Of a DNA stretch of 64,000 nucleotides, positions 20,538-38,772 are shown piece after piece. The stretch lies in assembly GCA_964437755.1 (NCBI GenBank), contig CAYTIA010000005.1, forward strand, positions 802-64,801, in the 5' to 3' direction. The notes below the pieces were generated by a model. That model searched no databases, had not been told where the DNA came from, and saw only the letters and a program-made list of their open reading frames with translations. A program made the translations under genes and the position numbers. This stretch comes from an uncultured Pseudomonadales bacterium. GTDB taxonomy: Bacteria > Patescibacteriota > Microgenomatia > UBA1400 > PJMF01. Position 1 is the first letter of the stretch; each line of letters opens with the position of its first letter.

Positions 20538-20564
20538 TAATTATATATTTCAGAAAAAAATAGT

Positions 20565-20864: not shown

Positions 20865-20872
20865 TTATCACA

Positions 20873-21863: not shown

Positions 21864-23069
21864 ATGAGAATTGCTCTGGTTGTTCCTCACATCTTTTTTA
21901 ATCAAGAAATATTACCAAATGTAATTTTTTCTCCGGGAGAGTTAGCTACTTCCTTGGCTAGAGGTTTGTCTGAGAGAGGGCATCAAGTTACTGTCTTTAG
22001 TCCTGGATCAGTTGTAAATCTATTATCAAAAGGTTCCTCAATAAAAAATATTAACACAGATCTTTCCTTATTTGAGAAAGAGCTTATTATGCGTGGTGAT
22101 TCTTATCTAGAGTTATTAAAAAAACATCCACTAACCTTTATAACTCTAGCAAGACAGGTACAAACAGAACTGATAGTGCAAGCCTACGCAATGGCAAACC
22201 AAGATGAATTTGATCTTGTTCATATTTGGTGTAACGAAGAAGAACAAGCTTTAGTGCTAGCACAGTTTTGTCAAAAACCGGTGATATTTAACCACCATGA
22301 GCCGTTTAATTTTTTAGCTCGTTACAGAGCAATTTTTCCTAAATATCCACATTTAAACTGGATCTCTTTCTCACAGGTTCAACGAAAAACATTTATTTCA
22401 ACAAATAAAATTAACTGGATAGGTAATGTCTATCATGGTTTAGAGCCTGATTTATATCAATTAAGCAATGAGAAACGAGAGTATCTTTTATATCTTGGAA
22501 GAATAATCCAGCCAAAAGGGGTTCATTATGCAATCTCGGTAGCTAAAAAGATGGGGCTAAAACTGAAAATTGCTGGAAAACACTATACCGGATATAGCAA
22601 GGATAAATATTGGCAAGAGTATATTCAGCCAGAAATAGATGGTAAGCAGATTGAGTATGTGGGTTTTGTTAAAGATCAACAAAAAAAGCAACAATTAATG
22701 AATAAAGCCATAGTACTTCTAATGCCATCAACTTGGCAGGAACCATTCGGATTGGTGATGATTGAGGCATTAGCCTGTGGGACACCGGTAATTGGATTTG
22801 ATCAGGGAGCGATACCTGAGGTTATTAATCATGGAGTGAGTGGCTTTGTTGTTCAGTATCAGGTTGAGCTAGGTGAAAAAAATATTCAGAGTTGGACTCA
22901 GCTCAAGAACGAGAAATGCTTTTTACAAAATGTTAGTCGTTTTGTTGATGCTGTTGGCAAGATTCCCTCAATTAAGCCAAAAGAATGCAGAAATGAATTT
23001 GAAAAAAAATTTACTGTTCAGATCATGGCAAAAAACTATGAAAAAATTTACAAAGATCAGGTTAAATGA
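21864..23069 (+). CDS. Glycosyltransferase family 4 (GT-B fold)
   Basis: C-terminal EPFGLVMIEALACGTPVIGFDQGAIPEVI (the E-x7-E GT4 signature region). Confidence 0.8.
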   Translation: MRIALVVPHIFFNQEILPNVIFSPGELATSLARGLSERGHQVTVFSPGSVVNLLSKGSSIKNINTDLSLFEKELIMRGDSYLELLKKHPLTFITLARQVQTELIVQAYAMANQDEFDLVHIWCNEEEQALVLAQFCQKPVIFNHHEPFNFLARYRAIFPKYPHLNWISFSQVQRKTFISTNKINWIGNVYHGLEPDLYQLSNEKREYLLYLGRIIQPKGVHYAISVAKKMGLKLKIAGKHYTGYSKDKYWQEYIQPEIDGKQIEYVGFVKDQQKKQQLMNKAIVLLMPSTWQEPFGLVMIEALACGTPVIGFDQGAIPEVINHGVSGFVVQYQVELGEKNIQSWTQLKNEKCFLQNVSRFVDAVGKIPSIKPKECRNEFEKKFTVQIMAKNYEKIYKDQVK

Positions 23070-23859
23070 TTACTAAATCTGCTTTAATATGTGGATGTGA
23101 GTTGTAGTTTTCAAGCTTAAAATCTTCAATGGTGAATTTATCGATGTCTTTTATTTCAGGATTAATTGCTATTTTTGGTAGGTGATAAGGCTTGCGTCTT
23201 AGTTGCTCTTTTGCAGGTTCAAGATGATTGGTATAGATATGAAGGTCACCAATGGTGTGAACAAACTCGCGAGCCTCTAGTCCTGTAACTTGAGCCACCA
23301 TCATCAATAATAGAGAATATTGAGTGATGTTAAATGGTAATCCTAAGAATGCATCAGCGCTTCGCTGATAAAGTTGCATTCTTAACTTTCCTTTGGTCAC
23401 GTTAAATTGATAAAAAGTGTGGCAAGGAGGAAGACGCATCTCTTCAAGCTGGGCGGGATTCCAGGCGGAAACAAGCATGGCTTTTGAATCTGGCTGAGTT
23501 TTTATCTCTTCAATTACATTTTTCAGCTGATCAATATGCCCACCTTTGTAGTCTGGCCATCTTCTCCATTGATAACCATAAACTGGCCCCAGGTCTCCAT
23601 TCTCATCAGCAAACCCATCCCAATAATGAATCTTTTTTTCTTGAAGTGATTTAATGTTTGTATCTCCGGAAATAAACCAAAGTAACTCGTTAGTCATGAG
23701 CTTAAATGGCATTTTTTTGGTAGTTAAAATTGGAAAACCCTTGCGTAGATCAAAGCGCATTTGATAGCCGAAAGTACTTTTGATAGGGTGAATTCCTCTG
23801 GTACCCTTAGATTTACCATTTTTTACAACGTGGGCTAGAGCTTTTAAGTATTGGATCAT
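23062..23859 (-). CDS. thyA: Thymidylate synthase (ThyA type)
   Basis: FGYQMRFDL, ELLWFISGDTN, LPPCHTFYQF (catalytic Cys), DLGPVYGYQWR. Confidence 0.9.
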   Translation of the reverse strand: MIQYLKALAHVVKNGKSKGTRGIHPIKSTFGYQMRFDLRKGFPILTTKKMPFKLMTNELLWFISGDTNIKSLQEKKIHYWDGFADENGDLGPVYGYQWRRWPDYKGGHIDQLKNVIEEIKTQPDSKAMLVSAWNPAQLEEMRLPPCHTFYQFNVTKGKLRMQLYQRSADAFLGLPFNITQYSLLLMMVAQVTGLEAREFVHTIGDLHIYTNHLEPAKEQLRRKPYHLPKIAINPEIKDIDKFTIEDFKLENYNSHPHIKADLVII

Positions 23860-23980: not shown

Positions 23981-24238
23981 ATGCCAAATTTTGATCAAAC
24001 AGGACCTACAGGAGCTGGTCCAAGAACTGGTAGAGGAAGAGGGGGTTGCATTTCTGGCTATGGAGTAGGATATGGATATGGATATGGATGTGGGTGTGGC
24101 TGTGGAAGAGGAATGGGAATGGGTCGATTTGTTTCGCCAAAGAATCAACTAATGGCTCTTAAGGAACAGGAAGAGATGCTAACTGAAGAGTTAGAAGTTT
24201 TGAGAGAAGAAATCTCTTCTCTTGAAAAATCAGCTTAG
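23981..24238 (+). CDS. Small Gly/Cys-rich protein with C-terminal coiled-coil (DUF5320-like)
   Basis: MPNFDQTGPTGAGPRTGRGRGGC...GYGYGYGCGCGCGRGMGMGR low-complexity core plus acidic helix LKEQEEMLTEELEVLREEISSLEK. Confidence 0.55.
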   Translation: MPNFDQTGPTGAGPRTGRGRGGCISGYGVGYGYGYGCGCGCGRGMGMGRFVSPKNQLMALKEQEEMLTEELEVLREEISSLEKSA

Positions 24239-24266
24239 AAGATAGGTTTTAATAAGACGAATTTTG

Positions 24267-24300
24267 CCAGCAACACAAAAAGTGTTGCTGGTTTTCTGTT
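24267..24300 (+). terminator. Rho-independent terminator after the DUF5320-like gene
   Basis: Perfect 10-bp stem ccagcaacac/gtgttgctgg with 5-nt loop, followed by TTTTCTGTT. Confidence 0.55.
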
Positions 24301-24325
24301 AGACTAGACCGTATAAAATATACAT

Positions 24326-24610
24326 ATGCCTCGTCCAAGATCACAAAAATCAATACGTTTTAAGCCAAGCGCTACCTTTTTTAAACCGCGTGGAGTGCCA
24401 ATGCGTGATCTTGAGGTGGTGAAGTTATCTCCTGAAGAAGTTGAGGTATTACGTTTAAAAAATATGGAAGATCTTTGCCAGCATGGGTGTGCTTGCCAAA
24501 TGAACACTTCTCAAAGCACTGTGCAGAGGTTGCTCTCTTCAGCGTACTCAAAAATTACTCAAGCCATTATTGAGGGAAAAGCATTAGAGATTGAGGAGAA
24601 GACTATATAA
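24326..24610 (+). CDS. UPF0251/DUF134-like predicted DNA-binding protein
   Basis: N-terminal MPRPRSQKSIRFKP...FFKPRGVPMRDLEVVKLSPEEVEVLRL, then an HTH-like STVQRLLSSAYSKI. Confidence 0.55.
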   Translation: MPRPRSQKSIRFKPSATFFKPRGVPMRDLEVVKLSPEEVEVLRLKNMEDLCQHGCACQMNTSQSTVQRLLSSAYSKITQAIIEGKALEIEEKTI

Positions 24611-24697
24611 ATAATATTTATTAGATATTTATATATCTCAATGTATCTATTGCAGGATAAGGCTGATATCTCAATATAATTTTTTTGCGTGAAAGAT

Positions 24698-24726
24698 TTG
24701 CTTCAAAGTAATAAAAAAGATATAAT
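24698..24726 (+). promoter_or_regulatory. Sigma70-like promoter (-35 TTGCTT, 17 bp, -10 TATAAT) for the giant PP2C gene
   Basis: ttgctt-N17-tataat, 27 nt upstream of the ATG at 24754. Confidence 0.45.
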
Positions 24727-24753
24727 TTTCAGAGTCTTAATTAATTTTTTTAT

Positions 24754-27700
24754 TTGAAAAAAAATATGTCCACAGAAAATTCTCCATCACCAGCATCACA
24801 AAGAGAAAAACTTGCTCATGAAACGCTGGGGCCAGACTTTAAGCCAGCTCCAATATCGGTAACTACTTGGACTGGTGGTCGTGAAGAAAACCAAGATGCA
24901 TTTTTTTCATTTGCAGTTATGCCAGAGTCTTACTATGATCGAGATCTAAATGAAAAAGAAAACTTGAAGGCTTTATCAGCTGCTGGGTATGAGTTGGTGA
25001 TGGTTGCTGACGGTATGGGAGGACATCAGGGTGGTGCAGAGGCTTCAAAAGTATTGACTCAGACAGTAATGAGGGTGTTTGCCGGTGAATTCGCTAGATA
25101 TTATGCTCAAACAACAAATAAGTCTTTAGCGACTGCCTCTCCAGAAGAAATCCAACAGTTTGTTAGAGATAAAATGCCGGTTTATAATTTGAAATCTTTG
25201 CTTAGGTATGCTATTGTTGAGGGCAACAAAAGCATTCAGGGTGTTGCTGGTTATGCAGAAGCTAGCAAAAAACCAGGATCGACTATTGTGGCTTCTTTTT
25301 TTGATCGCAACACAAACAAACATGTAATTGCTAACGTAGGGGATTCAAGAGCTCAGAAGATCACTCAAGGGGGTAAGCTAGAGCAGGTTACTGAAGATCA
25401 TTCAGTGGTTCAAAGATTATTAAAGGCGAAAGTAATTACAGAGGAAGAGGCACAAAGGCATCCAGCACGAAATGAAATATACCGCTCTTTAAATGGTCAA
25501 AAAATTGAAAAACCAGTTGAATATATTGACACTTTCGAAGTTCAGCTTAAACCAGGAGAAGTATTGATCTTGAACTCCGATGGATTAGAGGTCTTATCAA
25601 GAGATGAGATTGAAAAAGTAGTTAAAGAAGCCAAGAAGGATGGTACAACCATAGATCGGGCTTTAGTTGCTGCGGTTGACAGAAAACAACTTTTAGCGCT
25701 TGCCGAAAAAATTGAGTTTTCAGGTTTGCTTACAAGTGAAGAAATCAAAAAAATCTTTGAAGAGAATGCTCATCAAATGAAAAATAGTGAATTAGCGAAG
25801 CTTCTTTTTGAGAAAGTTGAGGAGGCTAGAAGAGAGGCAATTTATCAAGAATTAAGGGCTATTAATGTCCCTGGTTGGGTAAATAAACCTACTTTAGCCG
25901 AAAAGCTAAGAAAGGGAGAGGTTATTGCTGATGCAGTCATAGGTGAAGCACAGCAGTTAGCTAATGAAGGAACCATTGAGAAAAGCGATGTTAACCATTT
26001 ACTAAATGGTAAGAAATTTAGAAAAATCGAAGGCTACAATCATGACAATATTACTGTTATAATTATTGGCGAGGTAAAAAATACTTTTGGAACTGAATTA
26101 ATAAACAGGGCAAAATCTCTTTGGGATTCAGTTATCAATCTCTTCATAGGCAAAGATAAAAAAACTTCACCAGCAACTCCTACTGCTCAATCACCTGAGC
26201 AAGCTGATGCTAAACCAGAAAAAACTGGTTCATTGGCAAAGGTTTGGAAATGGTTAATAAGCTGGAAAGAGAGACGTGCCGCAAAACGATCAGCTGCAGA
26301 AATCAGAACTGCTTCTCAATCTCCAGAAGTGAGTACAGGTTTAACTGTTGAACAATCAATTCAAGCTTTATTGGCAATACTTAAAACACAAGATCGAAAT
26401 TTATTATTAAAGCTAGGGTTAATTAAAAATACACAAGAAGAGGATGATGATTCTGAGGCAGGGGGCTTGGCTGATTTTGTGAATGAGTTAAGTAGGGATC
26501 AAGCTGAGACCATTCAAAACAGAGAAAAAATTACTGATTTAGAAGCAAGAATTGAAGAGAATAGGCAAGCAGAGCGAGATATAGCAACTGAAGTTCATAA
26601 CTACTTAATATCTCTTTATGGTCATAATTATTTAAATCATCTTAGTCAAGATAATCGTGTTTATATAAACAGGTGTAATCAAGATATTCTTGGTATTAGA
26701 GCTATTCGCGCTGATCTCGAAAGAGAACTTGAACAAGCTAGGCAAGAGATGGGTGAAACAGATTCTTCCGTAAAAGAACTTACTATTGATGGTTTAGCAT
26801 TTAATCCAAAACGCAGAAGACAAGTAAAATTAGCTCTAGAAAGAGTGATTTCTAGCAATGAAGATGAAACTAAAGTAGCCAATATTAGAGACGCTTTGCA
26901 AAAGCATTTGCATGCTCTTGAGGCTAGTGCCTGGAAACCATTTGAAAAACTACAGCAGAAACCACTTTTCATGAAGATAAAAGGTATTTTCGAGAAGTTA
27001 AGTGGCTATACAAAAACTCAATGGGAAAATAGACCAAGGACGGTTGCAGAATGGAAAGACAGAGCGAGAGATAAGTCTATCGAGCGTTGGGAAAAACGAA
27101 AAGATAGCTATAACAAAAAGGAGCAAGTTTGGAGAACTAGTCTTAATTTGGAGTCAGTTACCCCAGAAGAATTAACAGCCTGGGAATTAGCACTAAGAAA
27201 AGGTCAGACTCTTGAAGCTAGGCAAGTGGTAGCTTTAGTTCTTGAACAGAGAGTTGGCTCAATTCCAGAGTTGAATAAACATAAAAAAGTTCTTAGAGAA
27301 GCGGGAATTGATTTGCAGCATGATTTAATGGATTGGCTCAGATTCCAGTGGGAGAAAAAGTTAACTGATGAGAGAATTGAGGCTGATGAAAATGTCAGAA
27401 AACTAAAAGAAGCAAAAGCTAACTCCCCTGAAGCAAGAAAAGAACTAAGAAAAGCAATTGTAGCACAGACAGAAGCTTATCTTAAATGGCTTAATTTGAA
27501 GGTTTATGATCATGTTAAAAAATCTGCTATTTTGGAAGCACAACTTGATCGATTTGGCAGACCAAATGCTACGGGCATAGCGAAAGAAGACATTGAAGGA
27601 ACTGGATGGCGGGGTTTGGTTAATAACCTTAAGAGATATATGTCTATGCCAAAGATGACAGCAGGACAAAGAGACGTGGCTTACTACGTCACCTATTTTC

Positions 27701-28833
27701 CATCTATGATTGGATTGCTAACTGCTCCAGGTTTAACTGCAGGAGCAAAAAACGTCATCATGGGAGTAACCTCTGGAGTGAGTGTTGGCGGTGAAGTAAT
27801 TAAACAAAGAATTGAGGCTCAATATGGAGGAGACAGTGAGGCATACTGGGAGAGTTTGCGTGCCAAAGAGGGTTTAAGTAGCAAAGTAATTTTTGCTCTT
27901 CAGAGGATAGCTGTTTCCAAAGCTGTCCAAAGTGTTAGAGATGGTATATCTGGAGGTGCAATGGCAGCTCAGGTCAGCAGTCTTCTTGGATTTGACACTT
28001 TTGCCTATCAGCTAAGAGAAAGTATTGATCGTGCTGCGCAGGGATTGAGTGGAGAACTTCCTGCTGATTTACAGGAGATTGTTGATCAACATCCAGAAAT
28101 TGTTTCTGAAATGGAAGATCTTCAGGCAGAACTCGATAGAGTCACTGAAGAAGCAGCACAACAAGCTGATTCACTTCGAGATGAATTAAGCGACGCTCAA
28201 CAAGCTGCAAAAGATTTGGAAGTGGAACTTGGTGACGCTCAACAAGCTGCAAAAGATTTGGAAGCTGAGCTTGAAAGGAAGGCTCAAGAGTTGCTCAAAG
28301 AGCAAGAAAAAGTAGCAGAGGCTGCCAAAGAAGCTGCTGAGCGTTCAGCTGCTGCTCAAGTAACTGAAGAAGCTGCTGTCGAAGCGGCCAAAGAAGTTAC
28401 TTCTAAGGCAGTTTCTCATTTGCCAGAAGCTCTTGCTGACTATGGTGATCAAGTAGTGCAGATGAAAGGAGGTGATTTTCTAGGAGATGTCTCTGCTTTA
28501 TGGACGGCTAACAGAAACCTTTCGGCTGAACTAGATCCAGCAAATAATGCTAACTCAATGGCGGGGTTTTTAACAAGAGCCTTTAGAGCACTAAACCCAG
28601 GAGTTGATCCAGCCAAACTTGATCCTGAAAAAACTTATAACTTCTTAACTGAAGAAGCAGTTAAAGCCTTGTTGCCAGAAATTAGAGCTGCTGAAAAGGC
28701 TGTTCTTGAAAGAGGTATCCAGAGTCTTGATTTACCTCAGCAATTAATGGCTGCGGGAATCGATGGATTTACTCATCCTACCTTTAATGATGAGCAATTA
28801 GCTTTAGTGTTAGAAACTGTTCTAAATAAATAA
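24754..28833 (+). CDS. Giant (1359 aa) protein: N-terminal PP2C/PPM Ser/Thr phosphatase domain fused to about 900 aa of coiled-coil/low-complexity sequence
   Basis: PPM motifs GGREENQDAF, VADGMGGHQGGAEAS, VIANVGDSRA, ILNSDGL. The remainder is helical and charged, with one hydrophobic stretch (YYVTYFPSMIGLLTAPGLTAGAKNVIMGVTSGVSVGG). Confidence 0.75.
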   Translation: MKKNMSTENSPSPASQREKLAHETLGPDFKPAPISVTTWTGGREENQDAFFSFAVMPESYYDRDLNEKENLKALSAAGYELVMVADGMGGHQGGAEASKVLTQTVMRVFAGEFARYYAQTTNKSLATASPEEIQQFVRDKMPVYNLKSLLRYAIVEGNKSIQGVAGYAEASKKPGSTIVASFFDRNTNKHVIANVGDSRAQKITQGGKLEQVTEDHSVVQRLLKAKVITEEEAQRHPARNEIYRSLNGQKIEKPVEYIDTFEVQLKPGEVLILNSDGLEVLSRDEIEKVVKEAKKDGTTIDRALVAAVDRKQLLALAEKIEFSGLLTSEEIKKIFEENAHQMKNSELAKLLFEKVEEARREAIYQELRAINVPGWVNKPTLAEKLRKGEVIADAVIGEAQQLANEGTIEKSDVNHLLNGKKFRKIEGYNHDNITVIIIGEVKNTFGTELINRAKSLWDSVINLFIGKDKKTSPATPTAQSPEQADAKPEKTGSLAKVWKWLISWKERRAAKRSAAEIRTASQSPEVSTGLTVEQSIQALLAILKTQDRNLLLKLGLIKNTQEEDDDSEAGGLADFVNELSRDQAETIQNREKITDLEARIEENRQAERDIATEVHNYLISLYGHNYLNHLSQDNRVYINRCNQDILGIRAIRADLERELEQARQEMGETDSSVKELTIDGLAFNPKRRRQVKLALERVISSNEDETKVANIRDALQKHLHALEASAWKPFEKLQQKPLFMKIKGIFEKLSGYTKTQWENRPRTVAEWKDRARDKSIERWEKRKDSYNKKEQVWRTSLNLESVTPEELTAWELALRKGQTLEARQVVALVLEQRVGSIPELNKHKKVLREAGIDLQHDLMDWLRFQWEKKLTDERIEADENVRKLKEAKANSPEARKELRKAIVAQTEAYLKWLNLKVYDHVKKSAILEAQLDRFGRPNATGIAKEDIEGTGWRGLVNNLKRYMSMPKMTAGQRDVAYYVTYFPSMIGLLTAPGLTAGAKNVIMGVTSGVSVGGEVIKQRIEAQYGGDSEAYWESLRAKEGLSSKVIFALQRIAVSKAVQSVRDGISGGAMAAQVSSLLGFDTFAYQLRESIDRAAQGLSGELPADLQEIVDQHPEIVSEMEDLQAELDRVTEEAAQQADSLRDELSDAQQAAKDLEVELGDAQQAAKDLEAELERKAQELLKEQEKVAEAAKEAAERSAAAQVTEEAAVEAAKEVTSKAVSHLPEALADYGDQVVQMKGGDFLGDVSALWTANRNLSAELDPANNANSMAGFLTRAFRALNPGVDPAKLDPEKTYNFLTEEAVKALLPEIRAAEKAVLERGIQSLDLPQQLMAAGIDGFTHPTFNDEQLALVLETVLNK
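28192..28275 (+). repeat. Two tandem 42-bp repeats inside the giant CDS (DAQQAAKDLE[V/A]EL[G/E])
   Basis: gacgctcaacaagctgcaaaagatttggaag occurs at 28192 and 28234. Confidence 0.8.
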
Positions 28834-28859
28834 ATACCAATAATTAAATAAAACTGCCT

Positions 28860-29159
28860 ATGTCAAAAATCTCAGATCTAATAAAAATGATGCGGGATGA
28901 TGGAGTTGAGGAGGAAGAAATAACACTTGCTTTGGAAGAAATGACAAAATCAACTGCAATGGAACTATTTACTCATTTATTATCCTTGATCAGCAAAGAT
29001 GAGGCAGAGCTGTTGGATGCAGTTGCAGATGATCAAGAAAGAGTTGATCAGTTAGTTGACGAGATGTATCAAAAGTATGAGGGGAAAACTACAGCACAAG
29101 CTGTTGATGAGATGAACGCTCGTTTTATTGAGGCTTTTTTAGATGGTTACGGCGCTTAA
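28860..29159 (+). CDS. Small acidic hypothetical protein (99 aa) immediately after the giant gene
   Basis: ORF 26 bp after the giant CDS stop; acidic and helical. Confidence 0.35.
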   Translation: MSKISDLIKMMRDDGVEEEEITLALEEMTKSTAMELFTHLLSLISKDEAELLDAVADDQERVDQLVDEMYQKYEGKTTAQAVDEMNARFIEAFLDGYGA

Positions 29160-30085
29160 GCCTTATATTGTCTAATGCTTTTACCAGCTTTTTCAAGGAT
29201 AGTTATTGCGTAGTTGTTTGAGTGTGAATCTTTATAAACTATTTCTTTTATTTCTGTTCGGGCTAACATTCTGCTACAAATGGGGCAAGGCATTAGGTTT
29301 ATATAGAGTGAACAACCTTCGAGTTTTATCTCTCTTTTAGCGGCTTCAAGAATAATTTCTACCTCAGCGTGATTGGTATCATAATAATTTAGATCTTGTG
29401 AGGGAGTTCGATACCTTTCTTTGCTGGCTCCGTGCAGAAGGGCATAGGTTTCAAAGGGCACAATTTTATTGTAAGTAGCTAATAAAAATTGATCGTTTTT
29501 GGTTAAGACAGCACCTGTCTGCCAAGTATTGTCAAAAGAGTAGCTTGCAACTTCATCGACTAATTGAAAAATCTTTTTTTTTGAGCAGTTTTCGCCAAAA
29601 TTTATAGAAAGAGCTGGTCTTGTTTTAAGAATTTTCGCTTCATACTGCAGAGCTTCGGCTTCATCTGCAAAGGCACTCACAAATTTTAATGGAATTTTAA
29701 GTTTCTTGATTGTTTGATATTCCTCTCGATAATGAAAAGCTCGATGCCAAGAGCCATTAATACCAATAACTGCTGACCAGTTATGATTGGCGATGATTGT
29801 CGATATATGAGTTTGAGGATATTCCAAAATATTAATCCTAGAGTTATCAAGTTGTTCTAGGCTTTCTTTAAGTTTTTTTATCGTAAGAGTTCTAAACTGT
29901 GGAGAGTTTTCCAATCCTTTAATAAATTCTTCTGTAAATACTCCCCAAACAATTTTTCTATCAGTATTTTTTAATAATTGACTGGAAAGTTGAATAATTC
30001 TTTCTGAAGAGATTTCTCGAGAACCCAATATTAGGATGGGAGAACTTTCAATCTCACTTAGACCTTGCCATGAAATAATTTTCAT
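29156..30085 (-). CDS. Two-domain protein: unknown N-terminal domain (about 170 aa) plus C-terminal dCMP/CMP deaminase zinc-binding domain
   Basis: HAEVEII ... PCPICSRML (H-A-E / PCxxC cytidine-dCMP deaminase signature). Confidence 0.65.
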   Translation of the reverse strand: MKIISWQGLSEIESSPILILGSREISSERIIQLSSQLLKNTDRKIVWGVFTEEFIKGLENSPQFRTLTIKKLKESLEQLDNSRINILEYPQTHISTIIANHNWSAVIGINGSWHRAFHYREEYQTIKKLKIPLKFVSAFADEAEALQYEAKILKTRPALSINFGENCSKKKIFQLVDEVASYSFDNTWQTGAVLTKNDQFLLATYNKIVPFETYALLHGASKERYRTPSQDLNYYDTNHAEVEIILEAAKREIKLEGCSLYINLMPCPICSRMLARTEIKEIVYKDSHSNNYAITILEKAGKSIRQYKA

Positions 30086-30621
30086 TATTTATTGTTTATT
30101 GAACCACCTTGATATTTTTCTTTGTATCTCTGGAGAGTTTTCTTGATTAATTCCGACTGTTTCTTGTAAAGAGCTATATTTTCGAGCGGAGTATGTTTAA
30201 GCTGTTGATAGTTCCAGCTACAAAGCTCCGGATGATTAAAAGGGATAAACTGTACATGAAGATGATCTGTAACGCTCATTTGGGCTTGTTCACCACCTTC
30301 ACGAATTAAGGTCCACATCCCTCTACAACCATGAATTTTTTTGATTAATTTTTTAGCTAGATAACTGTATTTTCTGATAGTTTCCCATTGAGCTGAAGAC
30401 AATTCTTTGGGCGAACTAATATGCTGACGGGGAATAGCCATTAGCTGTCCGTCGGTATATGGATAAAGATTCACCGTTAAAACGATCTCATTTTCCTCTA
30501 GCAAGATATACTTTTTTTTAAGATCACAAAATACACATTTACCAGTATTTTGCCAGATTTTCTCATACTCTCCAGTCGTCCTGGCATTCTTCTTATACTG
30601 CTGATCCTGTGTGTGATTCAT
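30085..30621 (-). CDS. HIT-superfamily nucleotidyltransferase/phosphorylase of the GalT/Ap4A-phosphorylase branch
   Basis: CxxC (CVFC) followed by HLHVQ (HxHxQ variant of the histidine triad). Confidence 0.6.
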   Translation of the reverse strand: MNHTQDQQYKKNARTTGEYEKIWQNTGKCVFCDLKKKYILLEENEIVLTVNLYPYTDGQLMAIPRQHISSPKELSSAQWETIRKYSYLAKKLIKKIHGCRGMWTLIREGGEQAQMSVTDHLHVQFIPFNHPELCSWNYQQLKHTPLENIALYKKQSELIKKTLQRYKEKYQGGSINNK

Positions 30622-30636
30622 AACAACATTTGTTTA

Positions 30637-31209
30637 TCAACTTGGCAACTTTCCAGAATCGCCTAACGGTCTTTTTGTTTCTCCCATGAAATCTTTTAAA
30701 ATATCATTGAGTTGTGCTGAAGCGCTTTTTTTAAGTATCTGAGTGGTAGAGATAAACGGAGACTGACGATCTACTAGTTCGACTCTGCCTCCATTGTTAA
30801 CAACAGTTTGGTATTCTGGAGAATCTTGATAACCACTGTTCCAGTCTTCTTTAACGGTTACATATACATCTGGTTGGAGTTGATCTAGAGTAGGTTGATT
30901 ACTAAGAGTGGGAACAATTGTAACCAGATCAACGAATCTGAGATAACTAATCATCTCGGCTCTGATCTTTTCATCTAATATGGGGCGATTAGGACCCTTG
31001 AGAGTGCTAACGGTTTGATTGCTACTTACTCCGACTATCAAAACATCAGCTTGCTTTTTTGCCTCAGCTAAATATCTAACTTGGCCGACATGCAACATAT
31101 CCCAGGCACCAGCTGTATAAACTATTGTTTTTTTCTTAGCATGAATAATTTTTCCTGTCTCTTCGATTTTATTTGGAAGAATCAGTCTTCTTTTCCAGTT
31201 AAATGCCAT
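30637..31209 (-). CDS. HxGH-type cytidylyl/adenylyltransferase (TagD/RfaE-domain-II-like)
   Basis: YTAGAWDMLHVGQVRYL (HxGH) plus a downstream ISTT motif region. Confidence 0.65.
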   Translation of the reverse strand: MAFNWKRRLILPNKIEETGKIIHAKKKTIVYTAGAWDMLHVGQVRYLAEAKKQADVLIVGVSSNQTVSTLKGPNRPILDEKIRAEMISYLRFVDLVTIVPTLSNQPTLDQLQPDVYVTVKEDWNSGYQDSPEYQTVVNNGGRVELVDRQSPFISTTQILKKSASAQLNDILKDFMGETKRPLGDSGKLPS

Positions 31210-31240
31210 GTTGTTGTATGTATCTTAATTATTGATAAAA

Positions 31241-31266
31241 AACCAAAAATAACCCGCCAGTGCGGG
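31241..31266 (-). terminator. Rho-independent terminator on the minus strand between the APH-like kinase gene and the cytidylyltransferase gene
   Basis: Minus strand reads CCCGCACUGGCGGG followed by UUAUUUUUGGUUUUUU. Confidence 0.5.
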
Positions 31267-31304
31267 CAGCCTGTTTTCTCTTATTCTAATCATTTATATC
31301 AGGA

Positions 31305-32381
31305 TTAGATGGGTAAAAGCAACCGCTGGTTTCCGTATTTAATAAGATAATCTCTGGTTCTTAAAAAATGTTGGTTTTGATATAGATATTCATAGGGATT
31401 GTGCTTGAAAAACTGGTAGAGGTCAATTAACAAATACATAAAAACCAGTTCTGTGATTAACAAGTGATTAGGTTGAGCAATATTAACTCTTTTTACATAT
31501 CCTGAATCAATAAAATACTTAACAATTTTCTGGGGATTTTTGTTCTTGCAGTCAACAAGTAAAAAAGCTAATGTTCTAGAGATATCAAGCTCTCTTGGAC
31601 CAAGAGCTGCCTTTTCAAAATCTAAAACTCCAGTTACAGCTAGACTTTTATTTGTAACGGTTTTTTGTTCAAGTTTAAGAACGAATTTATCGTCAAAATG
31701 ACAATTTGTAATATTCTTGAATAGAATATTGCCACGCACAAAGTCTAGATGAAGGAGTTGAGACTTTTTATGAGCATTAAGCCACTTTAGAAGCTTAGCG
31801 TACCTTGATAAATAGACTGGGTTTATTCTAAGTTTTAGTTTTTGTTCAATTGCTGTTTGAGTTTCAATATTTGTAAAATAGTTGTTCATTTTTGTCAATT
31901 TTTGTTGAAGATTAGAACATTCTTTGCTAGCTATTATATTTATGTTGTGACTAATTCTTTCTAAATCTTGATGCAGATAACCCAAAACTTGACCCAAAAG
32001 TTTAATGTGTTTTTTGCTATAGCTTTCCCACTCAATAGTGGATCCATCTAGGTAATTGTACAAACAACAAAAAATAGTTTTATCTCTAGTGTGGAGTTTC
32101 AAGATTTCTTGATTGTTGGTTGAGATAGTTTGACGAGTTGGCCAGCCATTATTGGCGAGTTGGTTTGAGATGAGATTGGTGAGCTTAATTTTTTCAAGAA
32201 TTTTTGGTTCTCTTTTGTAAAAAATTAGAGCTAGTTTTTCTGGTTTATCGCCATGAATCTCAATGGGTATTATTGAGTTTCGATAACCAGATTGAGTAGG
32301 TTTAATGGATATATCATTTTGATGATATTCAAACTGTGTTAAAACTCTTTTGATAACAGCTTGGCTTACTTTTGCTGGCAT
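31305..32381 (-). CDS. Protein-kinase-fold small-molecule kinase (APH/choline-kinase/HSK-II-like)
   Basis: Catalytic loop LLHLDFVRGNILF (HxDxxxxN) and VLDFEKAALG (DFx metal-binding). Confidence 0.6.
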   Translation of the reverse strand: MPAKVSQAVIKRVLTQFEYHQNDISIKPTQSGYRNSIIPIEIHGDKPEKLALIFYKREPKILEKIKLTNLISNQLANNGWPTRQTISTNNQEILKLHTRDKTIFCCLYNYLDGSTIEWESYSKKHIKLLGQVLGYLHQDLERISHNINIIASKECSNLQQKLTKMNNYFTNIETQTAIEQKLKLRINPVYLSRYAKLLKWLNAHKKSQLLHLDFVRGNILFKNITNCHFDDKFVLKLEQKTVTNKSLAVTGVLDFEKAALGPRELDISRTLAFLLVDCKNKNPQKIVKYFIDSGYVKRVNIAQPNHLLITELVFMYLLIDLYQFFKHNPYEYLYQNQHFLRTRDYLIKYGNQRLLLPI

Positions 32382-32437: not shown

Positions 32438-33205
32438 ATGAAAATTACTGCAGTTAAAACTCCAGTTGTTAGGGCAGGTGATACTCTTTTTGAACATATT
32501 GCTAATTGTATTCCTTCACTAGAAGAAAAGTCGGTGTTGGTAGTGGTCTCAAAAATTATCAGTTATTCCCAGAATCGACTAATTCCAATCAATGATGGAA
32601 CTCACGAAGAGAAGTATGAGATTGTGAAGCAGGAGGCAGATTTGTATTTACCCAATAGCATTTCTAGATATGACTTGATGTTTACCATTAAAAATGGTCA
32701 TTTAACTGTTAATGCTGGAGTAGATGAGTCAAATGCCAATGACCATTATTTACTATGGCCAACCGATCTTCAGCAAGAGGTTAATAACATCTGGAAATTT
32801 TTACGCGAGCATTATCACCTAAAGAAGGTTGGAGTGATTGTTACTGATAGCAGAACATGGCCGTTACGCTGGGGAGTAGTTGGTACCTGTCTAGCTCACT
32901 GCGGCTTTAAGCAGTTATATGATTACAGGGGGCAACCAGACGTATTTGGCAGAGAGATTCATTTTGTTCAACAAAACATTGCAGAAGCAATGGCTAGTTT
33001 TTCGGTGTTGGAGATGGGTGAGGTGGCTGAACAAACGCCATTGGGAATAATTGAGAATATCAAAAAAATTGAGTTTCAAGATCACGAACCAACACAGCAA
33101 GAATTAGCAGATCTCTTAATCAATATAGATGATGATATGTATGGGCCTTTGCTAACAAGTGTCTCTTGGCAAAAGGGTGGTGGAGGAATTAAGCTTGAGA
33201 GATAA
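32438..33205 (+). CDS. CofE-like (F420-0:gamma-glutamyl ligase family) protein
   Basis: Collinear with archaeal CofE as I remember it: VLVVVSKIISYSQNR, TVNAGVDESNA, KKVGVIVTDSRTWPLRWGVVGTCLAHCGF. Confidence 0.7.
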   Translation: MKITAVKTPVVRAGDTLFEHIANCIPSLEEKSVLVVVSKIISYSQNRLIPINDGTHEEKYEIVKQEADLYLPNSISRYDLMFTIKNGHLTVNAGVDESNANDHYLLWPTDLQQEVNNIWKFLREHYHLKKVGVIVTDSRTWPLRWGVVGTCLAHCGFKQLYDYRGQPDVFGREIHFVQQNIAEAMASFSVLEMGEVAEQTPLGIIENIKKIEFQDHEPTQQELADLLINIDDDMYGPLLTSVSWQKGGGGIKLER

Positions 33206-33207
33206 TC

Positions 33208-33957
33208 ATGATAAAAAAATCGGCTCTCTTATCCTCTCAACTTCTATTTGATGAAGCCAAGAAAATTGGTTTAGATCCTAAATGGGAAACAGATTATGGA
33301 TTATTCTCAGTGAGTCTTAATAACTCTCCGAAGAGGGAGTTCTTTTTTCATTCTAATCTTAATCTTAATGGGGAGTTATCTAGAATTCTAGTTAAGAATA
33401 AACATTTTACACGCCTGATCTTGGAAAAAAATAATTTTGTGAATATTCCGTATATTTTGCCTCGTTCTTCAGAAAAATTACAAGACTTTTTTGAGCAATA
33501 TCAGCCGATTATCTGTAAGCCTCTCTTGGGTCAGAAATCAAAAAGAGTGTATTTAATTAAAACAGTAGAACGTTTACAGAAATGTTCTCTTAAAATGAAT
33601 TTTTTTGAAAAGTATATCGATGGGGAAGAGTGTCGTTATTTAATTTTGCAGAATCAAGTGATTGCTGTGCAAAGAAAAAAACTATCTCCGACAAAAAAGT
33701 ATCCGTGGAATTTACACTACATAGGGGTTGAGAAGTTGCATTGGAATAACGATCTTGTAGAAGAATCTTTACGAATTGCTAACATATTTAATTTACGATG
33801 GGCAGCCGTCGATTTTATTATTGATGCAGCAGGAAAAGCCTGGGTACTTGAAGTAAACTCTTCTCCTGGAATAGTGAAAATCCACAATCCAGATGAGGGA
33901 GTAAGAGTAAATGCGGCGGAGTTGATCTGGAAAGCAATAACTGCTAAATACAATTAA
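33208..33957 (+). CDS. ATP-grasp ligase (RimK/CofF/MptN-like)
   Basis: ICKPLLGQKSKRVYL, EKYIDGEECRYLIL, AAVDFIIDAAGKAWVLEVNSSPG. Confidence 0.7.
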   Translation: MIKKSALLSSQLLFDEAKKIGLDPKWETDYGLFSVSLNNSPKREFFFHSNLNLNGELSRILVKNKHFTRLILEKNNFVNIPYILPRSSEKLQDFFEQYQPIICKPLLGQKSKRVYLIKTVERLQKCSLKMNFFEKYIDGEECRYLILQNQVIAVQRKKLSPTKKYPWNLHYIGVEKLHWNNDLVEESLRIANIFNLRWAAVDFIIDAAGKAWVLEVNSSPGIVKIHNPDEGVRVNAAELIWKAITAKYN

Positions 33958-35243
33958 ATTAGTTTTTCAACCGCTCCTACCAGTTCATCATCATTAAAAT
34001 ATTTAAGTAGTTCTTTTTGCCAATTGGGTACAGAGATATCAACATCAGGATTAACTCCGTTGCTCTCTATAGCAATACCATCAGAGCGAAGTGTTAAATG
34101 ATGAACTAAAAATATTGAGTACTCTTGCGTTTGATTAACCTGATTTTTGATTGGAAAAATGCGCTCTACTGTTCCCCAACCTTTGGTGGTGGTGCCGATC
34201 AGTACTCCTACATTATATTTTTGTAGTACATCAGCCATTACCTCGGCGCTAGATTGCACTTCTTCATCAATCAGTACTACGACTTTTTTATAACGAGCCA
34301 AAGTTGGTAACCAACCGACCTTGGTTTTAAAATCAGTGGTTTTTCCTTGTTGAAGCATTTGGTAAGCGTATTGATTATTGCCGATGAATGGTCCTAAAAA
34401 ATAGGGGAGACCATCAATTGCTCCTCCAATATTACCTCTTAAATCTAGAATTAAGCTAGATAATCGCTCATCCTCTCCATCAACCTTTTGAGTGATTTCT
34501 AGCAGTTCCTCAACGGTTGTAGGTGAAAACTGTTTAATTTTTAAGTAAAAAATTTGAGGAGAAATTAGCCTCCATTCCATAGTAGGATTAACACCAGATT
34601 TATCATAACGCTCACGATTTTCTTGACTTAGTAAAGTTTGCTGAGCTAATTCGAGTTGAGCTAGTTGCTGTTTTGATTCTGGGGTGTCTTCTGTCTGGAG
34701 GAGCTCCTTTTGTTTGTGGTAGGCTTGCTCAACCTCTTCATTGGTGGCTTCAGGATTGACTCCTAGTGATTGATAGTGATCAAGATCGGGATTAATGTTA
34801 CTCACTTTTTCTACAAGTTCTTTTTCAAGCTGTTGTGAGTAAAGTCGGCTACGACCAAATGGTTCTAGGTTAGCTAGAACCAGATCGGCTAATTGGGTTG
34901 TAAACTCTTCCTTGGTAGAATCGTCAGTGTAGTTCTCGAGAATAGCTATAATTTCGTCATCAAGATCTTGATAAGTTTTTATTCTGTCTCCTAGAGGTTG
35001 AGCGACAATCTGTTCTATAGCTTTGACATGCAATCGCACTAAAGCGTCTTCAGAAAAAGAATCCCAGTAGTTTTCTTGAATGATAACCCTAACTTCCTGT
35101 AAAAAGGCTAGGTATTTATTTTCGGGCTCATTGGTTTTTGTAAACCACTCAGATTTATATCTTGAAATAAACAGTCCGCCAGAAATTCCAAAAAGAAAAA
35201 TGACAATAATAAACAGCAGTGATTTGATTTTGCTATTGCGCAT
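33954..35243 (-). CDS. S41 family C-terminal processing peptidase (no PDZ) with an inserted degenerate J-domain-like segment
   Basis: S41 catalytic region LILDLRGNIGG ... VVVLIDEEVQSSAEVMADVL. The segment DHYQSLGVNPEATNEEVEQAYHKQKELLQTEDT...RERYDKSG resembles a DnaJ J-domain but lacks HPD. Confidence 0.7.
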   Translation of the reverse strand: MRNSKIKSLLFIIVIFLFGISGGLFISRYKSEWFTKTNEPENKYLAFLQEVRVIIQENYWDSFSEDALVRLHVKAIEQIVAQPLGDRIKTYQDLDDEIIAILENYTDDSTKEEFTTQLADLVLANLEPFGRSRLYSQQLEKELVEKVSNINPDLDHYQSLGVNPEATNEEVEQAYHKQKELLQTEDTPESKQQLAQLELAQQTLLSQENRERYDKSGVNPTMEWRLISPQIFYLKIKQFSPTTVEELLEITQKVDGEDERLSSLILDLRGNIGGAIDGLPYFLGPFIGNNQYAYQMLQQGKTTDFKTKVGWLPTLARYKKVVVLIDEEVQSSAEVMADVLQKYNVGVLIGTTTKGWGTVERIFPIKNQVNQTQEYSIFLVHHLTLRSDGIAIESNGVNPDVDISVPNWQKELLKYFNDDELVGAVEKLI

Positions 35244-35272: not shown

Positions 35273-35854
35273 ATGGAAAATATCCCGCAAGTTTTTATTA
35301 TTGTAGCAACCAGTCTTGATGGATTTATTGCTCAAACAAGAGAGCAGTCATCAGTTAGTTGGGCAAGCAAAGAAGACAATCAGTTTTTCCATCAAAAAAC
35401 AAAAGAGGCAGGGGTGATAGTGATGGGTAGTTCGACATTTAAAACCATTGATCCAAAATATCTGCCTCTTTCTGATCGTCTGAACATTGTTTATACAAAT
35501 TTTTCCAGCGATACTTTAGTAAAAGAACTTGGACTAAACCAAAGAAAGGTTAATCAAAGAAACTTGATGATAACCACTCAACCTCCAAAAGATTTAGTAA
35601 AAGAATTGGGAAAGATGGGCTATAAGCAGGTTGCGATTTGTGGTGGGAGTTCCATTTATACTCAGTTTCTGCAATCAGGGTTAGTAAGCAAAATTTTTGT
35701 TACTGTTGAGCCAGTTATTTTTGGTGATGGCATTAAACTTTTTAATCAGGTAGAAACAAAGAAAATGAAGCTATTGTCTATAAAGCAGCTCAATGATCGA
35801 GGCACATTACAACTTGAATATGAGTTAATCAATGAAAGTCAGAATGAAGGTTAA
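35273..35854 (+). CDS. Dihydrofolate reductase family (RibD C-terminal-like) protein
   Basis: VFIIVATSLDGFIA...GVIVMGSSTFKTI pattern of DHFR/RibD-C proteins. Confidence 0.55.
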   Translation: MENIPQVFIIVATSLDGFIAQTREQSSVSWASKEDNQFFHQKTKEAGVIVMGSSTFKTIDPKYLPLSDRLNIVYTNFSSDTLVKELGLNQRKVNQRNLMITTQPPKDLVKELGKMGYKQVAICGGSSIYTQFLQSGLVSKIFVTVEPVIFGDGIKLFNQVETKKMKLLSIKQLNDRGTLQLEYELINESQNEG

Positions 35855-36275
35855 GATTAAATTGATCAATGACTCTTTACCGGTTCCAGGATATCAGACT
35901 TCTGATTCAGCTGCTTTTGATCTCTATTCTAGACTTGATGTAGAAATTTTGCCTAAGGCTGTTTTTTTGGTGCCTTTAAATGTGATTTTACAGATTCCAA
36001 AAAATCATTGGGTTTTGATGGCAGCTCGAAGCAGTCTGCATAAAAAAGGTTTAATGTTGATTAATGGTATCGGGGTTGGAGATTATGATTATCAGGGAGA
36101 AAATGATGAATACCATGCGGCCTTATTTAACTTTTCTGATCAAACAGTCAAACTCAAAAAAGGCGACAGACTGGTTCAGGCAATTGTGTTGCCAAGAGAA
36201 AAAGTTGAGTTTTCAAAAATAGATGTTATTGCCGAGAATGATAAAAGCAGAGGAGGATTTGGTTCCACAGGTTAA
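35832..36275 (+). CDS. dut: dUTP diphosphatase
   Basis: Trimeric dUTPase motifs: SAAFDLYS, ARSSL, GVGDYDYQGE, C-terminal RGGFGSTG. Confidence 0.85.
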   Translation: MKVRMKVKIKLINDSLPVPGYQTSDSAAFDLYSRLDVEILPKAVFLVPLNVILQIPKNHWVLMAARSSLHKKGLMLINGIGVGDYDYQGENDEYHAALFNFSDQTVKLKKGDRLVQAIVLPREKVEFSKIDVIAENDKSRGGFGSTG

Positions 36276-38127: not shown

Positions 38128-38772
38128 ATGACAGATAACAAACAATCAGGTTTTTTAATAACTCTTGAGGGAGGTGAGGGAGGAGGAAAGTCTACTCAAT
38201 CAGTGAGATTGAGGCAGAAGCTTTCTGAAGAAGGAAGGGATGTAGTTGTTTTGCGAGAGCCCGGTGGTACAGCCATCAGCGAACAGATTCGCCAAGTTGT
38301 TTTATCTCCAACCAATACCAGCATGGCTTTTACCACTGAGGTTTTACTGTTTCAGGCTGCCCGTGCACAAATTTATCGAGAAATAGTTATTCCATCATTA
38401 AAAGCTGGCAAGGTGGTAATCATGGATCGCTCGCGTGACAGCAGCGTTGTCTATCAGGGTATGGTGAGAGGGTTTGGCAAGGAGTTAATTAATAATCTTA
38501 ATGATTTATCTACCGATAAAACTCTTCCCAATCTAACTATTTTACTAGATCTTCCAGTTGCTATGGGTTTACAACGAAGAGAGGAATCAGGAAAAATTGA
38601 TAGACTCGATATGGAGGCACAAGACTTTCATCAAAAAGTCAGAGATGCTTATTTAGAGTTGGCAAGGGAGGATAAAACGAACAGGTGGGTGATTGTTGAT
38701 GCTCAGAAAACTGTTGATGAGGTAGAATTAGAAATTTGGCAGGAAATTAATAAAAGGGTTTTTGGTAACTGA
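38128..38772 (+). CDS. tmk: Thymidylate kinase
   Basis: FLITLEGGEGGGKST P-loop; LID region with RSRD. Confidence 0.85.
   Translation: MTDNKQSGFLITLEGGEGGGKSTQSVRLRQKLSEEGRDVVVLREPGGTAISEQIRQVVLSPTNTSMAFTTEVLLFQAARAQIYREIVIPSLKAGKVVIMDRSRDSSVVYQGMVRGFGKELINNLNDLSTDKTLPNLTILLDLPVAMGLQRREESGKIDRLDMEAQDFHQKVRDAYLELAREDKTNRWVIVDAQKTVDEVELEIWQEINKRVFGN

Follow-up and report, generated by a model that had tools for sequence, protein, structure and literature searches.

The window analysed here, 64,000 nucleotides of contig CAYTIA010000005.1 from an uncultured member of the Patescibacteria (the Candidate Phyla Radiation, CPR), is AT-rich (~36% GC) and carries on its minus strand four adjacent genes for an APH-fold kinase, a nucleotidyltransferase, a histidine triad (HIT) protein, and a deaminase fusion. 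These genes belong to a seven-gene unit found in at least three CPR classes, which comprises a GT4 glycosyltransferase, thymidylate synthase (ThyA), the deaminase with an orphan N-terminal domain, the HIT protein with or without a Nudix domain, a transferase with an HxGQ signature, the APH-fold kinase, and dihydrofolate reductase (DHFR). Four of the proteins are without an assigned substrate and one domain is without relatives. The favoured explanation, tentative at a probability of about 0.35, is a Patescibacteria-specific operon that would supply deoxyuridylate and thymidylate through a (d)CDP-linked carrier cycle.

The open reading frames (ORFs) have many full-length homologues at E ≤ 1e-3 (62 for the deaminase, 460 for the kinase, and 1095 for the transferase), and are thus genes and not chance ORFs. 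The homologues and the ORF list bear out the positions that a sequence-only reading of this DNA had given for the four genes, and its four superfamily assignments agree with the Pfam and HIT-clan matches. The source names of the homologues, namely Microgenomates, Woesebacteria, Pacebacteria, Saccharimonadales, and Dojkabacteria, place the organism in the Patescibacteria. Synteny was compared in 127 related loci, of which 80 are from metagenomes and 47 from species-representative genomes; the latter were retrieved with the kinase profile, are all from CPR bacteria, and had their neighbouring genes called by tblastn. The co-directional order kinase, transferase, HIT, and deaminase is almost invariant in both sets and spans Microgenomates/Woesebacteria, Saccharibacteria, and Dojkabacteria. 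The transferase and HIT or HIT-Nudix were each detected in 44 of the 47 genome loci, as against 43 for the deaminase, 41 for DHFR, and 39 for ThyA, and the missing genes fall mostly at contig ends. Contigs with distant deaminase homologues show the series kinase-transferase-HIT-deaminase-ThyA in Woesebacteria and Saccharimonadales. Clustering of the neighbours exposed the GT4 as a further constant partner, and a GT4-seeded metagenome scan retrieved the same whole cluster. ThyA, GT4, transferase, and kinase occur together in every well-flanked locus (flanks of at least 6 kb), that is, in 28/28 kinase-seeded and 18/18 GT4-seeded loci, and with the order kept, chance adjacency is excluded.

The HIT protein and the deaminase are coupled in the window, where the TAA stop codon of HIT overlaps the ATG of the deaminase by a single base (TAATG), and they are fused in seven sequences with two architectures. 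HIT, N-domain, and deaminase are joined in P0185, L042, and L047, and HIT is joined straight to the deaminase domain, without the N-domain (~330 amino acids), in L019, L021, L079, and L122. HIT-Nudix fusions occur in ~20 loci. The cultured Saccharibacterium Southlakia epibionticum carries Tmk-Dcd-DHFR-ThyA, and its annotation table does not list the kinase, transferase, HIT, dCMP deaminase, or GT4 at that locus (PMC10633639, Table S1). Since this locus is without all five, these genes act like a single accessory unit around the dC-to-dU step. The strict idea that the module replaces Dcd is weakened by Dcd-like genes beside the module in L022, L050, and L103.

The zinc domain of the deaminase matches PF00383 (dCMP_cyt_deam_1) over residues 170-284 with 49.5 bits (cutoff 25), and its zinc motifs H238-A-E240 and P265-C266-P-I-C269 are invariant, as expected of a family member. 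The AlphaFold2 (AF2) model (pLDDT 95.6) consists of a six-unit beta-alpha N-domain and a cytidine deaminase (CDA) domain. dCMP deaminases take all 15 top places among the Foldseek matches of the CDA domain, with T4 Cd (1vq2, 1.4e-9) and those of S-TIM5, human (DCTD), and S. mutans among them, so that a predicted dCMP-type specificity is strongly supported by the modelled fold. The score against the ComEB equivalog TIGR02571 is 42.5 bits, below the cutoff of 219. The N-domain matched nothing in Pfam, PHROG, or PDB sequences, and a profile search of 1.84 billion representative proteins yielded 71 members, essentially all with the same architecture. Judged by sequence, it is an orphan, CPR-restricted domain. 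The sequence-only reading had described an unrecognised 170-residue N-domain fused to a dCMP/CMP-deaminase zinc domain, and this is confirmed. An anti-phage dCTP deaminase or other defence system was rejected, as the match is limited to the zinc motif region and there are no other PADLOC matches. A phage origin was likewise rejected: the kinase and N-domain profiles retrieved nothing from viral contigs, PHROGs gave only generic dCMP deaminase and RfaE matches, and a BFVD fold search with the kinase gave only generic eukaryotic-virus protein kinases.

The HIT protein passes the cutoffs of two Pfam families of the HIT clan (DcpS_C, 33.6 bits; CwfJ_C_1, 23.6 bits), and scores 19.1 against 21.5 for PF01230 HIT. 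Its PDB sequence matches are 6af2 (3e-7), the Ap4A phosphorylase Rv2613c (3ano, 2.6e-6), and Hint-type proteins. The triad with its nucleophilic middle His places it in the HIT superfamily: H120 and H122 are invariant, and position 124 is His in 35 and Gln in 11 of 47 orthologues, with Gln in the window. The cysteines C29 and C32 of the CVFC motif are invariant among orthologues. The segment A113-Q114-M-S-V before the triad retains the Gln of the Hint/Fhit 'GQxV' hydrolases, while Rv2613c has A-G-G-S-L, and the Rv2613c-type phosphorylase model NF052622 gives 31 bits against a cutoff of 290. HLHVQ and CVFC had been taken as signs of the GalT branch; both motifs are present, but the branch assignment fails. 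Pfam gives no GalT (GalP_UDP_transf) match, the protein is a single 178-residue domain and not two tandem halves (~350 residues), and the GalT-like 1z84 matches at E 0.05 over 53 residues. Given the single domain, the variable third triad residue, and the kinship to Hint and Rv2613c, the protein is classed as a single-domain hydrolase type that is Fhit/Hint-like and not GalT-like. It shares NLYPY...G(H/Q)...P, CxxC, and the histidine triad with its closest solved relatives, Rv2613c and the Fhit hydrolases. Unlike these, it has conserved N- and C-terminal extensions and, in many lineages, Nudix or deaminase fusions.

The transferase belongs to PF01467 (CTP_transf_like, 42.4 bits, cutoff 21), and the C-terminal motif R158-Q-S-P-F-I-S-T-T of the R-x-x-G-I-S-T-T type is conserved. 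Its best profile is that of heptose-1-phosphate adenylyltransferase (rfaE_dom_II, TIGR02199, 1e-30), at 106.5 bits under the equivalog cutoff of 181.5, and PHROG 7878 is likewise RfaE. PDB sequence matches are ECT (3elb, 2e-18) and HldC (5x9q, 1e-11). TagD (TIGR01518) scores 35 bits against a cutoff of 165, and PPAT gives a weak match (5.8e-4). The HxGH motif of the sequence-only reading is in fact H40-V-G-Q43, and Gln43 is a family feature, being present in 46 of 49 orthologues with His in the other three. With 55-90% identity across CPR classes, and 55-60% between Microgenomates and Saccharibacteria, the transferase is the most conserved of the substrate-less proteins. By its motifs and profiles, it is assigned to the ECT/CCT/TagD/RfaE-II branch as an HxGQ variant. 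A role as NadD/NMNAT was rejected because a bona fide NadD (TIGR00482, 147 bits) lies elsewhere in the window, and the kinase was rejected as dTMP kinase on the same ground, a bona fide Tmk being present.

The kinase matches PF01636 APH with 29.1 bits (cutoff 23.2). The ATP-binding Lys of beta3 (K55), H210-x-D212-xxxx-N217, and D253-F-E255 are invariant in 43 homologues, and the catalytic loop of the window protein reads H210-L-D212-F-V-R-G-N217. This is the APH signature, and the motifs HLDFVRGN and DFE singled out before are therefore both present and invariant. The AF2 model (pLDDT 92.4) has a bilobal protein-kinase-like fold. Foldseek gives 127 PDB matches at E ≤ 1e-3, all of them APH-family kinases with TM-scores up to 0.65-0.70; the relatives include HSK2 (2ppq, 1.7e-11, the best E-value), NahK (the best TM-score, 0.65), ChoK, aminopropanol kinase, and AmiN. 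These small-molecule kinases are about equally similar at 12-15% identity, and the substrate is not readable from the structural relatives of the model. The kinase sequence matched nothing in the PDB, and no NCBIfam family reached its cutoff, including the subfamilies with a named substrate (ChoK, HSK2, NahK, MtnK, and AmgK).

A terminator-like hairpin with a T-run lies between the kinase and the other three genes, as had been noticed earlier. It sits in the kinase/transferase spacer 3' of a TGATATAAAT box and is kept in sequence in at least six Microgenomates loci (L007, L057, L010/L059, L003/L004/L009, and L013). A TGnTATAAAT-like box precedes the hairpin by 20-40 nt and is common to L007, L057, L010, L059, L003, and L013. 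Saccharibacteria loci are without the hairpin and have a spacer of 0-50 nt. An Rfam scan of the window found tRNA only, with no riboswitch or known RNA in the spacer. The box and hairpin could be a promoter and leader attenuator, for example one that senses nucleoside triphosphates, and not a simple terminator.

The ThyA of the window is 83% identical by tblastn to the ThyA of L003, and scores 379 bits with PF00303 and 388 bits with NF002497 (cutoff 327). The residues R21, E58, Y94, L143, C146, H147, R166, D169, N177, and Y209 are the same as in E. coli, and the protein is, on this residue-level comparison, an ordinary dUMP-to-dTMP enzyme. A hypermodified-base pathway, with the ThyA homologue as a hydroxymethylase or 5-hydroxycytosine (5hoC) synthase as in T4/RB69, was rejected on the canonical C146, L143, D169, and N177 and the passed equivalog cutoff. 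The GT4 matches glucosylsucrose synthase (7fg9/8x3q, 1.5e-45) and UDP-Glc:tetrahydrobiopterin glucosyltransferase (5ze7, 1.7e-22), and its relatives glycosylate small-molecule acceptors with UDP-glucose (PMC9909042). It adjoins ThyA in 43 of 51 loci, convergently and with overlapping 3' ends, and relocates together with ThyA (L022, L023, L035, L036, L040, L043, L046, and L053). The 3' overlap is kept across CPR classes, and antisense or termination coupling is possible. DHFR lies directly upstream of the kinase in most Saccharibacteria. The window DHFR scores higher with RibD_C (79 bits) than with DHFR_1 (46 bits), and the saccharibacterial orthologues at the operon are plain PF00186 FolA-type.

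It is strongly supported, from family membership, that the predicted dCMP-type deaminase makes dUMP for the canonical ThyA and that DHFR recycles the folate. There is equally strong support for the dUTPase, dTMP kinase, and FolC2-like ligase as further servants of the thymidylate cycle in the lineage of the window. A solid case can also be made that the HIT protein, of a nucleoside-monophosphate-releasing hydrolase type, works with the deaminase, and that the kinase and transferase form an architecture in which X is phosphorylated and X-phosphate is then nucleotidylated. This logic, already proposed in the sequence-only reading, remains the most natural one for the first two enzymes. In the carrier cycle, the three upstream enzymes would act in gene order on one small carrier X. 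The APH-fold kinase would convert X, probably a sugar phosphorylated at its anomeric position or a small alcohol, to X-phosphate, and APH-fold anomeric sugar kinases such as NahK exist. The HxGQ transferase would then form (d)CDP-X and pyrophosphate from X-phosphate and (d)CTP. Successively, the Fhit-like HIT protein, which in a quarter of lineages would be assisted by a Nudix domain fused to it, would split (d)CDP-X into (d)CMP and X-phosphate and pass dCMP directly to the deaminase, its translationally coupled or fused partner. The net route would be carrier-mediated dCTP to dCMP to dUMP to dTMP, and the same nucleoside diphosphate (NDP)-X may also be the donor for the co-conserved small-molecule-type GT4.

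The carrier cycle draws on the conserved synteny, the HIT-deaminase fusions and TAATG overlap, the dCMP-deaminase-type fold, the canonical ThyA, the hydrolase-motif Gln of the HIT protein, and the ECT/CCT/TagD/RfaE-II branch of the transferase. It is further favoured by the Southlakia gain/loss unit, NahK as the best kinase TM-score, and the window's own NadD and dTMP kinase. dCTP is a substrate of an ECT-branch enzyme, and cells contain dCDP-ethanolamine and dCDP-choline (PMC2784872; PMC10505902). Several points weigh against the cycle. No substrate is predictable for the module enzymes, and a dCTPase of the Nudix or MazG kind would achieve the net conversion in one step, which makes a three-enzyme cycle look needlessly complex. 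As the best profile of the transferase is that of a heptose-1-phosphate adenylyltransferase, the enzyme could take ATP as its nucleotide, and the connection to dCMP would then be lost; moreover, Gln stands in place of the second His of HxGH, which may affect catalysis. The Dcd-like gene that adjoins the module in three loci indicates that the module is not a simple dCTP deaminase substitute. The three-domain HIT fusions could be frameshift artefacts of adjacent overlapping genes, whereas the four two-domain fusions cannot. The role of the GT4 is only loosely explained, and operon membership can reflect co-regulation and not a shared pathway.

Known thymidylate cycle sets (T4 cd-td-frd-gp56; comEB/dcd-thyA-folA-dut-tmk) resemble the window in bringing together a dCMP-type deaminase, ThyA, DHFR, dUTPase, and dTMP kinase, and in T4 the gp56 step from dCTP/dCDP to dCMP precedes the deaminase. 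In contrast, the window deaminase has an orphan N-domain, and the kinase, transferase, and HIT protein are without a counterpart in described thymidylate pathways. The T4 set also differs in its hydroxymethylase, which is absent from the window, where ThyA is canonical. The Kennedy pathway shares with the window an APH/ChoK-fold kinase followed by an ECT/CCT-branch transferase (3elb, 2e-18), and ECT can use dCTP. Unlike that pathway, the window set is without a CDP-alcohol phosphotransferase, its transferase is an HxGQ type nearer RfaE-II by profile, and the pair is coupled to HIT, deaminase, and GT4 and not to lipid synthesis.

A Leloir-like sugar-nucleotide module that serves the GT4 only is possible, although on the present evidence unlikely. 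The kinase would make a sugar-1-phosphate, the RfaE-II-like transferase an ADP- or UDP-sugar, and the GT4 would act on a small-molecule or envelope acceptor. HIT and Nudix would exert NDP-sugar quality control as hydrolases or phosphorylases, and the deaminase, ThyA, and DHFR would be co-transcribed housekeeping genes with no common intermediate. This reading accommodates the RfaE-type best profiles of the transferase (including PHROG 7878), the anomeric sugar kinase NahK as best structural match of the kinase, the weak resemblance of the Nudix domain to ADP-ribose and NTP pyrophosphatases, and the universal co-conservation of a GT4 whose relatives glycosylate small molecules with UDP-glucose. 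In the bifidobacterial lnpABCD operon, the APH-fold NahK is paired with a GalT-type HIT enzyme. Both the Leloir or galacto-N-biose/lacto-N-biose (GNB-LNB) set (GalK/NahK, GalT, and a glycosyltransferase) and the arabinosyl-5hoC cassettes of phages RB69 and DLP3 share with the window a kinase, a nucleotidyltransferase, a HIT-superfamily enzyme, and a GT4, and the anomeric kinase has an APH fold in NahK and in the RB69/DLP3 enzymes. In the phage cassettes, this APH-like sugar kinase and a nucleotidyltransferase stand together with GT4s next to a dCTPase and a ThyA homologue (PMC13326640). On the other hand, the window HIT is single-domain and not a two-domain GalT, and the transferase is HxGH-class and not GlmU/RmlA-class; unlike in the phages, the ThyA is an ordinary dTMP synthase, and no viral kinase or N-domain relatives were found. 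The recurrent HIT-deaminase fusions, the position of the deaminase inside the invariant co-directional core with the GT4 on the opposite strand, and the joint loss of deaminase and module in Southlakia are all unexplained by a sugar-nucleotide module.

A broader and doubtful proposal is that the seven co-conserved genes make and use a novel (deoxy)cytidine-diphosphate-linked sugar or alcohol, which would be both the obligatory dCTP-to-dCMP carrier for thymidylate synthesis and the GT4 donor. The GT4, which resembles pterin glycosyltransferases, would then glycosylate some small-molecule acceptor, with a pterin/folate and a pyrimidine nucleotide as possible candidates.

Vitamin-to-dinucleotide cofactor salvage with NadR/NadM-Nudix or RibK/RibL logic is rather improbable. 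Here, the kinase would phosphorylate a scavenged riboside or vitamin, the transferase would adenylylate it, and Nudix/HIT would recycle the dinucleotide. NAD, FAD, and CoA are known to be assembled by a kinase with an HxGH transferase, at times with Nudix (NadR, NadM-Nudix, RibL, and PPAT), and CPR bacteria rely on salvage. The Nudix domain of L005 weakly matches the NadM-Nudix family (1.8e-4), next to the PPAT match of the transferase given above. However, the window has a true NadD and NadE at another place, the kinase is without similarity to known riboside, riboflavin, or pantetheine kinases, and the deaminase fusion and GT4 are unexplained.

Folate or pterin tailoring or salvage, in which the GT4, kinase, and transferase would modify or activate a pterin or folate for DHFR, ThyA, the FolC2-like ligase, and the ATP-grasp ligase, has a slighter chance still. 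The similarity of the GT4 to the tetrahydrobiopterin glucosyltransferase would suit it, as would the set of DHFR, ThyA, FolC2-like ligase, and MptN/CofF-like ATP-grasp, all of them pterin-cofactor enzymes, and the kinase is divergent from FolC2 in the window and downstream of DHFR in Saccharibacteria. Yet the GT4 is nearer glucosylsucrose synthase than pterin enzymes, ThyA is canonical, most versions of the cluster have neither FolC2 nor ATP-grasp, and the HIT-deaminase fusions are unexplained. To our knowledge, there is no nucleotide-linked folate.

The sequence-only reading had favoured a phosphodiester-linked, oligoglutamylated metabolite like the F420 tail, made by the kinase, transferase, HIT, CofE, and ATP-grasp enzymes. 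A CofE homologue and a CofF/MptN-like ATP-grasp do adjoin the kinase divergently in the window and in Microgenomates relatives. The CofE homologue, however, is of the folate type, matching TIGR04132 ('putative folate metabolism gamma-glutamate ligase') at 5.3e-73 (245 bits, cutoff 350) and F420_cofE at 1.3e-32 (113 bits, cutoff 181), below the level of an F420 enzyme. The transferase is PF01467 and not CofC-like, as the F420 tail set CofC/CofD/CofE/CofF would require, and no F420 genes were seen in the window. CofE lies beside the operon in 8 of 47 genome loci and ATP-grasp in 5, only in a Microgenomates subset; the Saccharibacteria and Dojkabacteria versions do without the pair, which is missing from 39 of the 47 loci that keep the four-gene core, and the invariant partners are ThyA, DHFR, and GT4. 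With so restricted an occurrence, CofE and ATP-grasp do not define the pathway, and the phyletic pattern largely refutes the F420-like model, which is essentially excluded. CT611/FolC2, the CofE-group protein of Chlamydia, takes the place of FolC and can complement a folC mutant of E. coli (PMC1971073). The window homologue resembles it in being of the TIGR04132 type and near DHFR and ThyA, and differs in being under the family cutoff, paired with an extra ATP-grasp, and a lineage-specific accessory. The ATP-grasp after the FolC2-like ligase is related to the alpha-glutamate ligases MptN/CofF and could add further glutamates, possibly alpha-linked, to folate; we know of no established gene for alpha-linked glutamate addition to folate in bacteria.

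Coincidental adjacency of unrelated salvage enzymes is very improbable: small streamlined genomes do pack unrelated genes tightly and three of the genes are without an assigned function, but more than 100 loci from no fewer than three CPR classes keep order and strand, and fused genes and overlapping start and stop codons occur as well. The sequence-only reading had tied such a coincidence to a lack of synteny and to a deaminase that groups with ThyA-feeding dCMP deaminases. The deaminase is indeed dCMP-type and travels with ThyA, whereas the synteny of the four core genes holds; the CofE/ATP-grasp pair, in that neighbourhood comparison, is confined to a subset, and the invariant GT4 partner had no place in the sequence-only reading.

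The catalytic domains are all from known superfamilies, and what is new is the combination, the HxGQ clade, the HIT-deaminase and HIT-Nudix fusions, and the orphan N-domain. Full-text literature searches brought up no account of the gene combination. A large share of bacterial diversity belongs to the Patescibacteria, which are mostly uncultured and have no de novo nucleotide synthesis, and the balancing of their deoxynucleoside triphosphate pools is largely inferred from annotation. The assignments given here correct 'ADP-heptose synthase', 'homoserine kinase II / RdoA', 'HIT family', and 'F420 ligase', annotations that would mislead metabolic reconstructions. The enzyme set is small, soluble, and easy to express, and it gives biochemists a concrete pathway that can be falsified. 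The carrier cycle, if true, would be a new way to make dCMP, and the sugar-nucleotide idea, if it holds, would identify a CPR glycoconjugate pathway that is conserved and has a genetic link to DNA precursor synthesis. If the novel-metabolite proposal were true, the DNA-thymine supply in much of the Patescibacteria would hang on a new nucleotide-activated intermediate and an orphan domain.

Table 1. Positions of the genes and other features in the window and, where a locus is named, in related loci.
Feature	Position	Strand	Remarks
NadD and NAD synthase NadE	19956-21637	plus	directly upstream of GT4
GT4 glycosyltransferase	21864..23069	plus	PF00534, PF13692; convergent to ThyA, 3' ends overlap 8 nt
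ThyA	23062..23859	minus	canonical; ancestral last operon gene, displaced by 5.3 kb insertion
Insertion, four genes	23981-29159	plus	5.3 kb between ThyA and deaminase
Deaminase fusion	29156-30085	minus	309-residue ORF
dCMP-deaminase-type zinc domain	29156..29578	minus	~residues 170-309; PF00383
Orphan N-domain of the deaminase protein	29591..30085	minus	~residues 1-165; Rossmann-like, six beta-alpha units (AF2)
HIT protein	30085-30621	minus	178-residue ORF
Nucleotidyltransferase	30637-31209	minus	190-residue ORF
Kinase/transferase spacer	31210-31304	minus	95 nt
Terminator-like hairpin and T-run	31236..31267 (stem 31267-31252)	minus	GCCCGC-ACTG-GCGGG; sequence scan
APH-fold kinase	31305-32381	minus	358-residue ORF; first gene of invariant core
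CofE-family, FolC2-like folate gamma-glutamate ligase	32438..33205	plus	divergent from kinase; lineage-specific addition
RimK/MptN-like ATP-grasp ligase	33208..33957	plus	PF08443 9e-14, MptN 3e-11, CofF 1.5e-7; lineage-specific addition
S41 C-terminal processing peptidase	33954-35243	minus	internal J-domain (DnaJ, residues 155-214); N-terminal membrane anchor
DHFR	35273..35854	plus	RibD_C/DHFR_1
Trimeric dUTPase	35832..36275	plus	TIGR00576 106.6 bits, over cutoff; Microgenomates subset
557-residue ORF	36406-38079	plus	between dUTPase and dTMP kinase
dTMP kinase	38128..38772	plus	TIGR00041 168 bits (cutoff 83)
Saccharibacteria neighbours (567-residue type or Dcd/dUTPase-fold)	L050 5877-8330, L050 8323-9090, L103 13313-14038, L022 7342-8055		
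Insertion between transferase and HIT-Nudix	L005 5458-6564		dUTPase_2 and 130-residue protein
Insertion before deaminase	L005 7608-7988		Avd / 23S-rRNA-IVP-type four-helix protein

The insertion in the window splits an operon that is contiguous in most relatives. Its genes encode a Gly-rich DUF5320 protein (85 residues), a DUF134 protein (94 residues), a 1359-residue PP2C-like protein, and a 99-residue ORF. The 1359-residue protein has an N-terminal PP2C phosphatase domain followed by long coiled-coil-like and acidic C-terminal regions, and gives weak PADLOC matches to PDC-M21C and DndD.

Upstream of the GT4, NadD (over the TIGR00482 cutoff) is a second HxGH-family transferase and NadE a further salvage step inside the same 20 kb. 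On the other side, CofE, ATP-grasp, the S41 peptidase, and the dUTPase are found only in 5-8 Microgenomates-type loci of 47, and the position of the peptidase between ATP-grasp and DHFR is kept in these (6-8/47). Searches of Pfam, NCBIfam, PHROG, and PADLOC gave no match for the 557-residue ORF. By our own reading, its N-terminus, LIDVGSSSTKLY, is presumably similar to the phosphate-1 motif of the acetate/sugar kinase-type (ASKHA) ATPases.

In 19 Saccharibacteria loci, a ~567-residue protein with a degenerate N-terminal thymidylate-kinase-like domain adjoins the cluster, and a Dcd/dUTPase-fold protein of ~240 residues is present in three loci. The insertions in L005 belong to one lineage, and the dUTPase among them is of the dimeric all-alpha type.

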